Of a stretch of DNA of 42,873 bases, positions 36,621 to 41,689 are shown one piece after another (position 1 is the first letter of the stretch; each line of letters opens with the position of its first letter). A model generated the notes under the pieces. The model was given only the letters and a program-made list of their open reading frames with translations, had not been told where the DNA came from and did no database searches. Position numbers and translations under genes: made by a program. The DNA comes from a virus (taxonomy: Duplodnaviria; Heunggongvirae; Uroviricota; Caudoviricetes), in the IMG/VR virus record IMGVR_UViG_2897369580_000001; one strand, written 5' to 3'.

Positions 36621-36845
36621 GTACGGTCGTAATGGAAACATAACGACGCCGGAAACGTAACCGGCACCCTTTAGATAGCAAAAGACCCGCACAAGGCGGG
36701 CCAGTTACCCCGAACGGCGACCAAACCATTCGGATTTATCACAAGTGACCAAACTTGTGATGAGGAAAGACCAACGACACTGACGCTATGGAAGCTGATC
36801 AATATTCGCTGATCGGCTCTGAGTATACATTACCAAGGAGTCGCT

Positions 36846-37166
36846 ATGGAAGCGCGCACCATCCCAGTAACACTCTTTATTCATTATGCAACTTCAACTT
36901 TCAGCCACGAAAAGCTGCTTGTTGCGACTGTTGATATGTCAAAAAATTTTCCAGACAGGTACATCCTTCTGGAAAGCCGCGAAATTGAAATTACCGTTAA
37001 CCAGCCCGAGCCAATCGACATCATCGGTTTACAGGTCGAGCAACTGCGTGAACAAAAACAGAAAACAGTCGCCGACGCCCAACAGCGTATTGCTGCTATC
37101 GATGACAAAATCCAGCAGTTACTTTGCATCGAATACACGCCAGATACCGATGAGCTCCCCTACTAA
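36846..37166 (+). CDS. Hypothetical early-left protein
   Basis: 106 aa; AAGGAG RBS 7 nt upstream; coiled-coil-like C-terminus. Confidence 0.5.
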   Translation: MEARTIPVTLFIHYATSTFSHEKLLVATVDMSKNFPDRYILLESREIEITVNQPEPIDIIGLQVEQLREQKQKTVADAQQRIAAIDDKIQQLLCIEYTPDTDELPY

Positions 37167-37196
37167 AAACCACTGACCTGTAATGAGGAAAGACCA

Positions 37197-39413
37197 ATGA
37201 CCATTTTTAACGGCTTGTTAGAAGCGAAAAAAGGCGCGCTCAAAAACGGCGCGATCCCGGCGCTGGCCATCGCCATCGCCGCCCCTAACAAAAAAGTTGC
37301 CGAGAACATCATCATCGGCAAATTGTGGGAAGCCTACCCTGACCACGGCGACAACTATTTCAAACCTAAAATCTGGGAAGATGCCCCGGGCCAACCGCGC
37401 CCAGGCGTCGGTGAGTTTGATGAGACGTTTGCCACAGAACACAGTTTTGATGGCGAAAAATGGGTAGTTAACACTCCTGTTGATTCAGATTGCAGTTCAG
37501 CAGATATCTCACAGGTTAGCGACCTGATGAAACTGCCGGCTCGTGAACGATTCGCCGCCGTTCTGCTGTTCAGCCACGACGCCAACGAAGTCGACAGTGA
37601 ATTGCTTGTGCAGACGCGTGAATACCTGGAGATGCTCGATAACAGTGATACTGACAGTGAGGATGAGGTTGACGCGTTTAACCGCATCGTTCTTGATGCC
37701 ATGGTGGCGTGTAAGCCCATCGAGTACATGCATATTGCTGGATTGAATAATCTGGTACATGCAATTTTGGCAAGTTGCGATACCCAGGAACAAAACCCGA
37801 CCAGTTGGACTATCTCCAAATTTATAAAAAAATGGGTAGAGAATCCCGGTAAACGAGATGAAATGCTGCCGGAGGTAAAACCAGAAACAGCATCCGCACG
37901 TCCTTACAAACAGACTCACGCCACTCTGGATCGTGAAATTGCCTGCGCCCTGTTACCTGTTGCCCCGGAAAAAATCACCCCCAGCATCCTGAAAGCGGCA
38001 GACGAAATAATCAGTCAGGACAGGGAAGATTTTAAACGCTGGTCAATGGCCTTGCGCACAACGGATCAGATCCTTGCCTATGACCGCGCATCAGTATTCG
38101 GTGTTATTCAGAGCGCCCCCGCAAAAGACACGTACCACTTCCCACAATCCCTGCGCAGTCACATCGACAACTGGCTGCAAGCTAACGGGCAGCGTGATGC
38201 AAATGCTGTTGAAGAGAAGCCAAAGGAAGCAGCACCCAAGGATGATGTAAAAGTCACCAACCACGGCGGCGGACGATTCTCAATTGATGGGATGATGTCA
38301 GAAACACCCTCAAATCAGGGCGAAAAAAGCGAAGCTGCAAATGCTGGAGAACGTAGTTTGCAGCAGTTGCGTGAGCAGTTTGTCACGCCTCGCCATGTGT
38401 ATGACGTACCTGAAAATAACGCCGTATCACAGAGGGAACCTGCAGCTATTACCCTGGCAGAAGAGACTCCTCCACAAGAACAACTTAGCGAGCAGGTAAA
38501 GGATCTGGTGCAGAACGTTGACGCGCTGGTTGAGCGGATCCATGCCGAAGAGCACAAGCGGCAGAATGCAATCTCAGCTATCGAAACGGAGTTAAAGGAC
38601 TCAGATGACACGGATAACCTGGCATTGTGGAAGAACGTATTCAAAACCGATGAGCGCTTCACCAGTGCTTTCTCTCAGAATGGCGGCGGCACATCCATCA
38701 ACGGCACTTATATAGCGATGAAAGCGACTCGCGAATTTGGGCCATTTGGTATTGGCTGGGGGGTAGAGGTGCTGGAGGAGCGCTTTGATAAAGGCGCACC
38801 AATAGTTCGCAAAAAACAGGTTGGTGAAAAAATAGAATGGGATCTGATTCAAGACGGTGTTGGCGGGTACCTATGTGAAATGCACCACACCATGAAAGTG
38901 AGAGTCTGGTACATATTGAATGGGGTACGCGGTGAGTCCGAGGCTTACGGATGCACACCTTATATCTACGACACTAAATACGGACCAACAAGCGACGGCG
39001 AAGCACCGAAGAAATCCTGGACGGATGCTGTTAAGAAAGCGCTATCCCCTCTCGGATTCAGCGCCGATATTTTCATGGGCCTGTACGACAATCCGGAATA
39101 CCGCCAGAGGAATAAAGCTGAGTTTGATATCAAGAATGCCAGCGAGAATGCGGAAGATGCTACCCGTCTGCGTAAGGAACTGGATGAGAAGCTTATCAAC
39201 GTTGCCAATACGCTGGCCGCCGCGGTAACCGCCAACGAAGTAAACAAGGTATTTGGCCTCATCGCCCGCGAAGTGGATGTACACAGGAAAGCAGCGGAAA
39301 CCAAAGGCGATAAAGAATATTCATCGTATCTGGGATCACGTCTGCGCCGTATCACCGACATTAAAACTGAACGCCTCGCCGCCCTTACCGCTGCACAGGA
39401 GCAAACAGCATGA
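37197..39413 (+). CDS. Large recombination protein with C-terminal Rad52-like annealase domain
   Basis: 738 aa; ...KKSWTDAVKKALSPLGFSADIFMGLYD... resembles the Rad52/Sak signature; conserved RBS motif. Confidence 0.55.
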   Translation: MTIFNGLLEAKKGALKNGAIPALAIAIAAPNKKVAENIIIGKLWEAYPDHGDNYFKPKIWEDAPGQPRPGVGEFDETFATEHSFDGEKWVVNTPVDSDCSSADISQVSDLMKLPARERFAAVLLFSHDANEVDSELLVQTREYLEMLDNSDTDSEDEVDAFNRIVLDAMVACKPIEYMHIAGLNNLVHAILASCDTQEQNPTSWTISKFIKKWVENPGKRDEMLPEVKPETASARPYKQTHATLDREIACALLPVAPEKITPSILKAADEIISQDREDFKRWSMALRTTDQILAYDRASVFGVIQSAPAKDTYHFPQSLRSHIDNWLQANGQRDANAVEEKPKEAAPKDDVKVTNHGGGRFSIDGMMSETPSNQGEKSEAANAGERSLQQLREQFVTPRHVYDVPENNAVSQREPAAITLAEETPPQEQLSEQVKDLVQNVDALVERIHAEEHKRQNAISAIETELKDSDDTDNLALWKNVFKTDERFTSAFSQNGGGTSINGTYIAMKATREFGPFGIGWGVEVLEERFDKGAPIVRKKQVGEKIEWDLIQDGVGGYLCEMHHTMKVRVWYILNGVRGESEAYGCTPYIYDTKYGPTSDGEAPKKSWTDAVKKALSPLGFSADIFMGLYDNPEYRQRNKAEFDIKNASENAEDATRLRKELDEKLINVANTLAAAVTANEVNKVFGLIAREVDVHRKAAETKGDKEYSSYLGSRLRRITDIKTERLAALTAAQEQTA

Positions 39414-39979
39414 GCACTGCTATCGCTATTGCAAAAGAATATGCCAGTCTGATTGACCTGTTAGAAACCGCCGATGAACTGACGCCAGAGATGATCGCCG
39501 ACACGCTTGAAGGCATGGAAGGAGAACTGGGAGACAAACTGGACGCCATGATGGTCATCTGCCGTAATTTACAGGGCAATGCCAATACCTGCGCTGAAGA
39601 AATGTCTCGCCTGGCAACCCGTAAGACGTCCTTTGAAGGCAAGGAAAAAGCAATTCGAAAGCATATGCTCACCTGCCTGCAAGCTGCTGGCCTGGATAAA
39701 CTGAAAACCGCAAAAAACACATTTACTGATGCACAGGGGGCTATCCGGGTAATTATCGATAGCAAAGATAAGATCCCGGATGAGTATGAGGGCGTGTCAC
39801 TTGTTGATGTAGAAACGGTTATTACACCAAACAAGCGAGCCATTAAAGAAGTGATTGAATCTGCGGAGGCGGTTGCCGCCGAAATACTGGCGCGTGGAGA
39901 AACACCACCAGCCGAGTTATTAAACCCGGTACCAGGCGCACATCTGGAACGCGGCGAACGGTCACTGAGGATACGCTAA
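39410..39979 (+). CDS. Gp157-like protein (Sipho_Gp157 family candidate)
   Basis: 189 aa overlapping stop of upstream gene; family call from memory. Confidence 0.4.
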   Translation: MSTAIAIAKEYASLIDLLETADELTPEMIADTLEGMEGELGDKLDAMMVICRNLQGNANTCAEEMSRLATRKTSFEGKEKAIRKHMLTCLQAAGLDKLKTAKNTFTDAQGAIRVIIDSKDKIPDEYEGVSLVDVETVITPNKRAIKEVIESAEAVAAEILARGETPPAELLNPVPGAHLERGERSLRIR

Positions 39980-40864: not shown

Positions 40865-40890
40865 AGGATAACGCGCCCTGAGTTTCCCGA

Positions 40891-41193
40891 TTATCGAGAA
40901 CTGTTCAGGGAGTCTGACATCAAGAGCGCGGTAGCCTTTTTTAATATTTCATTTTCCATTTCAATACGTTGTAGCTTTTTCCTGAGCTCACGGATTTCAA
41001 TTTGTTCCGGGGTAATAGGGGAGGCTTTTGGTGTTTTTCCCTGCCGCTCATCACGTAATTGTTTCACCCATCGCGTCATTGTGGAAAGGCCGACATCCAT
41101 AGCGCTGGCTGCATCTGCCACGGTGTAATTCTGGTCAACGACCAGTTGAGCGGATTCGCGTTTAAACTCTGCGCTGAAATTTCTTTTTTTCAT
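40891..41193 (-). CDS. IS911 transposase OrfA (HTH, leucine zipper)
   Basis: [21 protein letters not shown]...[31 protein letters not shown] matches IS911 OrfA. Confidence 0.9.
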
Positions 41194-41464
41194 TATGGCA
41201 CCTGTGTTGTTCTGAGGTGAGCATATCACCTCTGTTCAGGTGGCCAAATTCAGTAAACCACTTCAGTTCACCTGGTACTTGCCGATGGTACCAATGGCAT
41301 TATTGAAGCACGGAGCCGCTGCGAACTTGGGCTACACCTGCCAGAAAACATTAAGGTCACTCGGGAGAAATCGGCATTCACCCCACAAGAACTGATTACG
41401 CCTAATCAGAAATAAAAACTCACCATCGCTAGCATTGCGATTCACCAGACACCGGAGGATCACA

Positions 41465-41689
41465 ATGCTGCGATGGCAACCGGGAGCAACTCTGCTCTCC
41501 GCATTTGATATCAAAATTGGTCGACTGTCGGCCAGCGTCAGGAAACAGACTTTGACCGAGTCTGATATTGCCCGTGCCTGCCAGAAGGCAGATGACGCAA
41601 TAAGCTACATAATGAGGAAAGACCATGAAAAGCGATCACGACATAATCACCAGAGAAGAAATGGTCGAGCTGACGGGAAGCCCACTTAA
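41465..41689 (+). CDS. Hypothetical small protein (uncertain; overlaps excisionase-like gene)
   Basis: ATG at 41465; overlaps 41625..41888 in another frame. Confidence 0.2.
   Translation: MLRWQPGATLLSAFDIKIGRLSASVRKQTLTESDIARACQKADDAISYIMRKDHEKRSRHNHQRRNGRADGKPT

Follow-up and report, generated by a model that had tools for sequence, protein, structure and literature searches.

The published sequences nearest to the motif considered here are the SAS elements of Cluster K mycobacteriophages, asymmetric stretches of ~13 nt with a Shine-Dalgarno core that end 3–7 nt short of the start codons of unrelated gene families, keep a single orientation, are restricted to the non-structural half of the genome, and have subcluster-specific variants (PMC3203893). 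A subset of them carries an upstream inverted repeat (ESAS), for which an RNA hairpin was, according to the authors, not supported (PMC3203893). Among regulatory RNAs, the closest precedent is the c4 RNA of the P1/P7 immI region (Rfam C4, RF01695, with its a1/b1 targets), a small structured phage RNA whose loops and single-stranded stretches pair with short repeated targets on the early/antirepressor mRNA and occlude the ribosome-binding site (RBS). In P1/P7 heteroimmunity, a difference of a few bases in the c4 pairing sequence sets specificity (PMC12197685). Other phage RNAs, such as P22 sar, lambda OOP and aQ, P22 sas, and BTP1 STnc6030, are short, have their own promoter and an intrinsic terminator, and are cis-antisense to early or regulatory mRNA including the RBS (PMC12197685). 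Here, we analyzed a 12-nt box repeated in the early operons of the Caudoviricetes record IMGVR_UViG_2897369580_000001 (42,873 nt; the whole stretch is called the window below, with plus for the strand given and minus for its complement). The first copy of this box, at 36756..36773 on the plus strand, lies in a conserved, previously undescribed predicted small-RNA gene on the minus strand and is not a gene start.

The box recurs in the early region far beyond chance. A preliminary description of the window had noticed it at three sites, and this recurrence was confirmed: TGTRATGAGGAAAGACCA occurs with 0 mismatches at 36756-36773 and 37179-37196 and with 2 mismatches at 41608-41625 (3 matches vs 0.03 expected; 0/100 shuffles reached 3), the earlier coordinates being right for copies 1 and 2 and off by one for the third. 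Exact matches to the 14-mer ATGAGGAAAGACCA stand at 36760, 37183, and 41612. A search of the whole window, which that description had proposed together with a search of related prophages, yielded seven exact copies of the 9-nt core GGAAAGACC against about 0.3 expected (2 × 42873 / 4^9), located at 36527, 36591, 36764, 37187, and 41616 on the plus strand and at 34528 and 32108 on the minus strand. The constraint on the motif is far above that of a generic RBS. All seven copies lie in the pL or pR early operon (32.1–41.6 kb), and all are sense-oriented. Four of them stand 0–1 nt before the genuine ATG of the 738-aa, xis-like, 74-aa, and 136-aa genes (37197, 41625, 34518, and 32098, respectively), with GAGG 8–9 nt before the ATG as in generic Shine-Dalgarno placement. 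The association with gene starts thus holds for these four; copy 1 (36764) and the leader copies at 36527 and 36591 have no start codon and show no such placement. Intergenic gaps in the early operons carry the box, and overlapping gene starts are without it.

The minus strand over copy 1 has the features of an antisense small-RNA gene (36678..36827), namely a -10 box, covarying helices, and an intrinsic terminator. The -10 box TATACT at 36827-36822 predicts a transcription start at about 36819-36814, and the predicted RNA of about 137 nt (36814-36678) folds in the order P1, UUUCCUC, P2, P3, terminator. Helix P1 pairs 36814-36807 with 36776-36769 (GAUCAGCG with CGUUGGUC) and is followed by the 7-nt single-stranded UUUCCUC (36768-36762), hairpin P2 (36761-36738, loop UUGGUC), hairpin P3 (36733-36710, loop UUUGGUCG), and the intrinsic terminator (36702-36684) with its U-run. 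On the plus strand, copy 1 reads GAGGAAAGACCA and then ACG; its minus strand supplies the anti-box (36772-36764) of the predicted RNA. The hairpin seen just upstream of copy 1 on the plus strand follows an A-run and makes a good intrinsic terminator when read on the minus strand. In relatives, this terminator has three different stems with compensating changes, and its U-run is confined to the minus strand throughout. The non-coding block between copy 1 and the 106-aa gene is likewise conserved, and its minus strand carries a -10 hexamer at a fixed distance, which is TATACT in the window, TATAAT in many relatives and in Pectobacterium phage ZF40, and TAGAAT in a Serratia-type group.

An alignment of 23 distinct sequences of the minus-strand unit (A2) supports this structure. 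It contains helices P1–P3 on the minus strand, with loops UUGGUC in P2 and UUUGGUC in P3, and 98.1% of the cells in these helices are paired, compared with 39–54% in slid controls. Double-sided changes occur at 12 pairs of P1–P3, a number matched by 0/500 shuffles. The terminator helix was assessed per sequence, outside the consensus, because MAFFT shifts the three types of terminator by one column relative to each other. The RNAalifold consensus energy is -35.7 kcal/mol on the minus strand vs -20.0 kcal/mol on the plus strand, and the minus-strand fold is the more stable in 23/23 sequences. Two of the G-U pairs in P1 are invariant; on the plus strand, they would read as A-C mismatches. The triplet after copy 1 also belongs to this helix: its variable base, which makes ACG or ATG, pairs within P1 with a base ~35–50 nt away, as C-G in 14 of the sequences and as U-A in 9. 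Because of this covariation, the ACG/ATG difference is a matter of RNA structure and does not record a lost start codon, and the ACG is conserved in most relatives. The earlier idea that copy 1 is a decayed gene start is thus contradicted.

A covariance model built from A2 was run over the family loci and other lineages. In 65/65 loci it gave exactly one match, which in every case is antisense to the early-left operon. Among lineages outside its build, it scored 55–59 bits in the Serratia-type group, 40 in locus L075, 32–43 in the lineage with box GGTATGACC, and 30–34 in the lineage with box GGACTGACC; in other prophages, it scored 115–142 bits in Escherichia whittamii, two Raoultella species, Rosenbergiella, and Enterobacter sichuanensis, and 55 in Serratia montpellierensis. 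The anti-box in each lineage carries that lineage's own triplet, apart from L106, where the anti-box meets the box with a G-U pair, and from L091/L108 and the L187 type, which each have a mismatch. In the Serratia-type group, it is the start of the exonuclease homolog itself that lies antisense to the predicted RNA. A scan of the window at Rfam gathering thresholds returned C4, isrK, and a1b1 at 30291-30488 alone and nothing at the copy 1 RNA, and an E-value scan of 35800-36900 returned weak terminator-like minus-strand matches of 14–19 bits, which place the RNA neither in RF01695 nor in any other Rfam family. The predicted RNA shares with antisense small RNAs in general a putative promoter of its own (the conserved -10 box), a Rho-independent terminator, and covarying structure on the transcribed strand.

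The box itself is conserved to a degree that distinguishes it from a plain RBS. A search of IMG/VR with the 738-aa protein gave 76 loci, and further relatives came from blastn, IMG/VR, and GTDB scans; a megablast against a phage collection gave no match. The exact 9-mer occurs 5–11 times per locus in all 65 loci (L001-L066) with a 738-aa homolog of 48–100% identity, with gene positions and sense orientation unchanged throughout, including 3–6 copies in a leader without open reading frames (ORFs). All nine core positions are invariant over about 400 instances in these loci, where the box takes the form GA-GGAAAGACC-A, usually followed by AUG-ACC. Other lineages have their own versions: GGCAAGACC occurs 7–8 times in Pectobacterium phage ZF40 (L079, NC_019522), GGCATGACC occurs 8 times in the Serratia-type group, and further variants, each uniform per genome, are GGTATGACC, GGACTGACC, and, in L075, GAGACATAACC, in which the Shine-Dalgarno is weaker (GAGA) and the remainder of the unit is kept. 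The frame in common is (A)ACCGAGG-NNN-GACCA-ATG-ACC. Its spacer triplet is uniform inside each lineage and different among lineages, unlike the free spacer of a generic RBS. Because the spacer is invariant per lineage but varies between lineages, and because the start-less copies are conserved, a plain RBS does not account for the box. The bases just before the box are mostly cGA or aGA in relatives, and TRATGA is an additional flank common to the three pL copies of the E. coli lineage. A text search of papers for the motif matched primer sequences alone, the ZF40 genome paper does not mention it, and a search for RNA-seq of ZF40 gave no useful result. Two phages deposited as Stenotrophomonas phages, BUCT708 and BUCT709 (vB_SmeS_BUCT709 = L002, OM816835), have ~75% nucleotide identity and the full gene order in common with this family, and the boxes and the small-RNA gene are also present in them; Stenotrophomonas looks doubtful as their host.

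Several boxes are preceded by a hairpin, and the complete unit consists of a 4–5 bp stem with the 7-nt loop CUGACCA, 10–14 nt ending in (A)ACCGA or AAGA, the box, and ATG, often followed by ACC. Before the 74-aa gene, the full unit (34519..34558, minus strand) comprises the hairpin AGCGC-CUGACCA-GCGUU (34558-34542), a spacer, and GAGGAAAGACC (34530-34520); before the 136-aa gene, which lies downstream of the DnaB-like helicase gene, it comprises the hairpin ACGC-CUGACCA-GCGU (32134-32120) and then GAGGAAAGACCA (32110-32099), within 32099..32134 on the minus strand. Copy 2 (37179..37196, plus strand) forms the box and RBS of the 738-aa gene, and copy 3 (41608..41625, plus strand) those of the DUF4224 xis-like gene; the last A of copy 3 is the A of the ATG, which shortens the spacing by 1 nt. 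In the pL leader, an ORF-less array (36527..36619, plus strand) combines the start-less boxes 36527-36535 and 36591-36599 with three additional CUGACCA-loop hairpins at 36548-36562, 36569-36585, and 36605-36619. Across relatives, the loop is constant (NUGACCN) and is carried by >15 different stems with compensating changes. In an alignment of 48 selected hairpins (A1), 85.8% of cells are paired, compared with 28–54% in slid controls, and there are 40 double-sided changes vs 12 in shuffles (0/500 shuffles as high).

The anti-box is the exact complement of the box, UGGUCUUUCCUC, and includes the anti-Shine-Dalgarno CCUC. The predicted contiguous duplexes are 19 bp at the 738-aa start, 17 bp at the 136-aa gene, 15 bp at the 74-aa gene, and 14 bp at the xis-like gene, and 12–13 bp with the two leader boxes. 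All of these cover the Shine-Dalgarno, and at the 738-aa, 136-aa, and 74-aa genes the AUG is covered too, the pairing extending into the AUG-AC start common to unrelated proteins; in other lineages, the duplex is up to 22 bp long and reaches the second codon. In a duplex scan with a 28-nt query over 10,710 windows, the gene-start boxes rank 2nd, 3rd, 4th, and 6th after the RNA's own template site. The small-RNA hairpin loops UUGGUC are, in addition, complementary to GACCA of the mRNA hairpin loops. The order of elements fits antiparallel pairing, because on the mRNA the loop is 5′ and the box 3′, and on the small RNA the anti-box is 5′ and the UGGUC loop 3′.

The sequences show the motif set and how well it is conserved, the covarying hairpins, a minus-strand unit with its structure, terminator, and -10 box, and the complementarity; from these we infer that the RNA is produced, that it acts in trans, and that its effect is negative. 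The predicted antisense RNA would pair in cis with the pL leader and in trans with the boxes of both early operons, i.e., those of the 738-aa, xis-like, 74-aa, and 136-aa genes. First contact would be loop-to-loop (UUGGUC with GACCA), after which the duplex would spread across the Shine-Dalgarno and, at three of the four gene starts, across the AUG as well, so that translation of leaky or incoming early transcripts would be blocked. The start-less boxes and hairpins of the long pL leader would then offer extra binding sites or decoys when pL fires. We give roughly even chances to the proposal that the antisense RNA represses the box-bearing early genes in this manner, with the leader copies as extra sites or decoys.

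A number of observations weigh against this proposal or lessen its support. Complementarity between the RNA and the boxes is automatic, as the RNA gene overlaps one box copy; because complementarity alone is automatic, the evidential weight rests on the conserved promoter, terminator, and structure and on the uniformity of the other copies. That uniformity within a genome could itself come from gene conversion or from selection for one optimal start region. In P1, the UUGGUC half of the anti-box is base-paired, and the -35 element is weak (TCCATA). The anti-box of L091/L108 has one mismatch to its own boxes, and that of the L187 type has an A-C mismatch. The three helices contain 125 G-U cells on the minus strand vs 4 on the plus strand, a count that is biased as the helices were first predicted on the minus strand, and the two-strand energy comparison is the fair test. 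Alignment A1 was hand-picked, with 48 of 66 unfiltered sites; a stem of ≥4 bp is found at 39/66 sites of the unfiltered set vs roughly 2% expected by our own calculation. For the mRNA hairpins, G-U vs A-C counts favor the sense strand mildly (12 vs 6).

Compared with the systems described above, the predicted RNA resembles c4 in being a small structured phage RNA directed at short repeated targets that contain an RBS. Unlike c4, which is processed out of the transcript that also holds its targets and which controls a single operon (icd-ant), it is predicted to be convergent from its own promoter and to have at least four gene-start targets in two divergent operons in addition to the leader copies. 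It shares with P22 sar, lambda OOP and aQ, P22 sas, and BTP1 STnc6030 a short length, its own promoter, an intrinsic terminator, and an antisense position over early mRNA; those RNAs, however, each act on one overlapping gene and have no near-identical target boxes over both early operons (PMC12197685). In placement, the box corresponds to SAS, being asymmetric, near starts, in one orientation, in the non-structural region, and preceded by an inverted repeat in a subset of cases. The SAS consensus GGGATAGGAGCCC differs from GAGGAAAGACCA found here in enterobacterial phages, and host phylum and phage family differ as well. In contrast to the ESAS repeats, the hairpins here covary, and no antisense partner has been reported for SAS. 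The box is thus an analog of SAS and not a member of that class.

Two further suggestions of the preliminary description concerned gene junctions. Translational coupling is not supported: the TAA/TGA triplets that accompany the Shine-Dalgarno in this phage are not conserved in relatives, the stop of the 106-aa gene is 30 nt upstream of the 738-aa start, and the ORF that matches phrog_27062 reads through copy 3. This ORF (41465-41689, plus strand; E = 1.4e-32), which is unannotated and has a good Shine-Dalgarno, includes copy 3 in its 3′ end, where the box codes for ..M-R-K-D.., and overlaps the xis-like start in another frame. Micro-homology for modular exchange fared better, with two clean joints. 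Between loci L016 and L008, identity runs through the box and ATGAA, beyond which the two are unrelated, and the indel of an optional 94-aa gene (L029 vs L002) is bounded by two units. Most sharp breakpoints lie elsewhere, however; identity jumps fall at the motif in 3/26 clusters for L001 and 0/19 for L002, a weak enrichment. BLAST alignment endpoints pile up at the unit, homology starting at -5..-1 and -30..-26 from the box and ending at +5..+19, and this pile-up is partly the plain effect of a conserved island. The unit is therefore an occasional recombination joint and not the main one. Lambdoid boundary or linker sequences are short conserved stretches at gene junctions where mosaic joints can fall. 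Unlike them, the conserved island here has a defined structure, a defined position, and a complementary RNA, and a minority of the sharp joints occur at it.

Other explanations of the repeated unit deserve consideration. One holds that it is a standardized translation start cassette acting only in cis, in which the hairpin insulates an unstructured A/C-rich RBS (GAGG, 8-nt spacer, AUG-ACC) and gives reliable expression of uncoupled genes, the copies being homogenized by gene conversion or recombination and the RNA, if made, acting in cis on the pL leader or first gene. The four of seven copies with good Shine-Dalgarno spacing before genuine starts agree with such a cassette, as do the presence of the box wherever the early operon has an intergenic gap and its absence from overlapping starts. 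The two clean recombination joints and the endpoints piled up at the unit edges also point to it, and the TRATGA flanks of the three pL copies in the E. coli lineage suggest local homogenization. A cassette does not readily explain why positions outside the Shine-Dalgarno are invariant over deep divergence yet differ by lineage, why start-less copies are conserved, or why L075 keeps the unit despite its weaker Shine-Dalgarno, and insulation needs no constant hairpin loop; we regard it as rather unlikely. A constant loop on variable stems is, on the other hand, typical of protein-binding RNA elements, and the box and hairpin loop might be sites for a phage or host protein that serves as translational repressor, activator, or antiterminator on nascent early RNA. 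T4 RegA and lambda N-boxB are examples of proteins acting on early RNA in such ways. Arrays of sites in the leader and lineage-specific boxes, which would fit co-evolution with a phage-specific partner, favor this possibility. However, neither an RNA-binding domain nor an N-like protein rich in arginine turned up in the Pfam and PHROGs assignments for the early genes, the 106-aa product of the first pL gene is acidic and unlike N, and a predicted RNA partner with perfect complementarity is already present, leaving a protein site improbable.

The least probable of the explanations, which we consider very remote, is a DNA-level element with no RNA role, such as a recombination linker or a stoperator-like repressor site. 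Mosaic joints do fall at the unit in some comparisons, and its orientation is fixed relative to transcription, as is that of the stoperators of mycobacteriophage L5 (mentioned in PMC3203893). Stoperators of the L5 type share the operator sequence, whereas the operators of this phage (ATTACAAA..TTGTAA, in OR and OL) are unrelated to the box, and the boxes are thus not repressor sites. Compensating stems round a constant loop indicate a single-stranded hairpin, most sharp breakpoints are away from the motif, and placement 0–3 nt from start codons points to translation.

Several narrower candidates were also rejected. Pairing with the 16S rRNA 3′ tail does not extend beyond GAGG when compared by eye with the known E. 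coli tail, and CsrA-type sites, with GGA in hairpin loops, do not correspond to the loops found here (CUGACCA or GACCAA). A lambda/P22 nut site with N was set aside in view of these same loops, the lack of a visible boxA, the acidic first pL product without an arginine-rich motif, and the many sites per operon. Read as a sigma-70-like promoter, the unit has a poor -10 by eye. As for a separate trans antisense RNA in the window, including the C4/isrK RNA at 30.3–30.5 kb, the sole box complements are the reverse strands of the copies.

The window represents most of one prophage with lambdoid organization. The DNA around the boxes is 100% identical to E. coli chromosomes, e.g., SK1144, and the prophage region is carried by 475/5,426 complete E. 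coli genomes, where its chromosomal neighbors are the leuZ-cysT-glyW tRNA genes and pgsA. The cI-like repressor gene lies at 35407-35835 on the plus strand, and the minus-strand early genes include cro-like, YdaT-family cII-like, O-like, and DnaB-like genes. The early-left operon (plus strand) comprises the 106-aa gene, the 738-aa gene (PHROG label 'exonuclease', with a Rad52-like C-terminus), Gp157, a 60-aa ORF, the DUF4224 xis-like gene, and int. Operator-type repeats ATTACAAA..TTGTAA form one set between cI and cro (OR) and another (OL) over a promoter-like site, TTGACC-17-TAAAGT, at 35954..35982 (plus strand). Because the repeats at this site are of the same type as OR, we take it to be pL; the gene-free stretch from ~35990 to 36845 is therefore the pL leader. 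The 60-aa ORF, intact in E. coli SK1144, is disrupted here by an IS3-family (IS911-like) insertion of 1,250 bp (40016-41265) with a short target duplication, whose orfA (40891..41229) and orfB (40046..40864) are on the minus strand. A second stereotyped RBS, AAGGAG(T/A)C(G/C)CTATGGAA, occurs at 35029-35044 (minus), 35319-35335 (minus), and 36836-36851 (plus) and is common to three genes that each come first in their transcription unit (cro-like, YdaT/cII-like, and 106-aa).

The window holds additional structured elements, most of them in the leader. Directly upstream of an ORF6N antirepressor-like gene, the C4 antisense RNA, isrK, and a1/b1 target family at 30291-30488 (minus strand), all above Rfam gathering thresholds and with the C4 model match at 30291-30376, form a second, already known antisense control system in the same prophage. 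Within the pL leader, an RprA-like 3′ domain of small RNA with a strong intrinsic terminator (36348-36458, plus strand) is kept in relatives including ZF40. Its Rfam RprA match (RF00034; 37.4 bits, E = 0.012) is under the gathering score of 70 and does not establish membership; the good resemblance is confined to the 3′ domain and terminator, in which UGCUGUGUUUAGUCUUUGCCC plus the terminator is close to the RprA consensus. The element implies that transcription from pL has to pass a terminator before it arrives at the early-left genes. Immediately 5′ of the RprA-like part is a tRNA T-arm/acceptor-end-like fragment, GGTTCGATTCCGGGCGCC (36385-36403, plus strand), with a weak tRNA-Sec match of 19 bits; ARAGORN found no tRNA genes in the window. 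Closer to pL, ~45 nt downstream of it, the hairpin GCCG-GAAAGA-CGGC (36036-36051, plus strand; second copy at about 36085-36108) has a likeness to the lambda boxB hairpin and is kept with compensating stem changes in all lineages examined (ZF40, Serratia-type, L075, L108), even where the box differs. In ZF40, gp08 as annotated (8494-8982; 162 aa from a GTG) overlaps three features, namely the RprA-like element, the gene predicted for the small RNA, and the genuine homolog of the 106-aa gene, which starts at ATGAAAGCGCC at about locus position 8689; this annotation is probably spurious.

Taken to its full extent, the antisense proposal would describe one anti-Shine-Dalgarno small RNA that controls translation of both early operons through boxes and kissing-loop hairpins, with the 3-nt variable part setting heteroimmunity-like groups and the leader boxes acting as a sponge that releases repression on induction, in temperate phages of E. 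coli, Klebsiella-like hosts, Raoultella, Enterobacter, and Serratia and in Pectobacterium phage ZF40, which is a laboratory model. We advance this wider picture tentatively, as a possibility that is doubtful in its entirety. Even if the unit acts in cis alone, it is a naturally occurring cassette for starting translation, insulated and portable, and it marks some of the recombination joints. If the antisense proposal is true, it would constitute an RNA-based regulon within a phage, in which one small RNA, a 12-nt box, and a hairpin link recombination, excision, and replication-associated early genes. It would also offer a possible mechanism for SAS, unexplained since 2011, and would explain the Met-Thr starts of unrelated early proteins in these phages, and specificity groups would become predictable straight from sequence.

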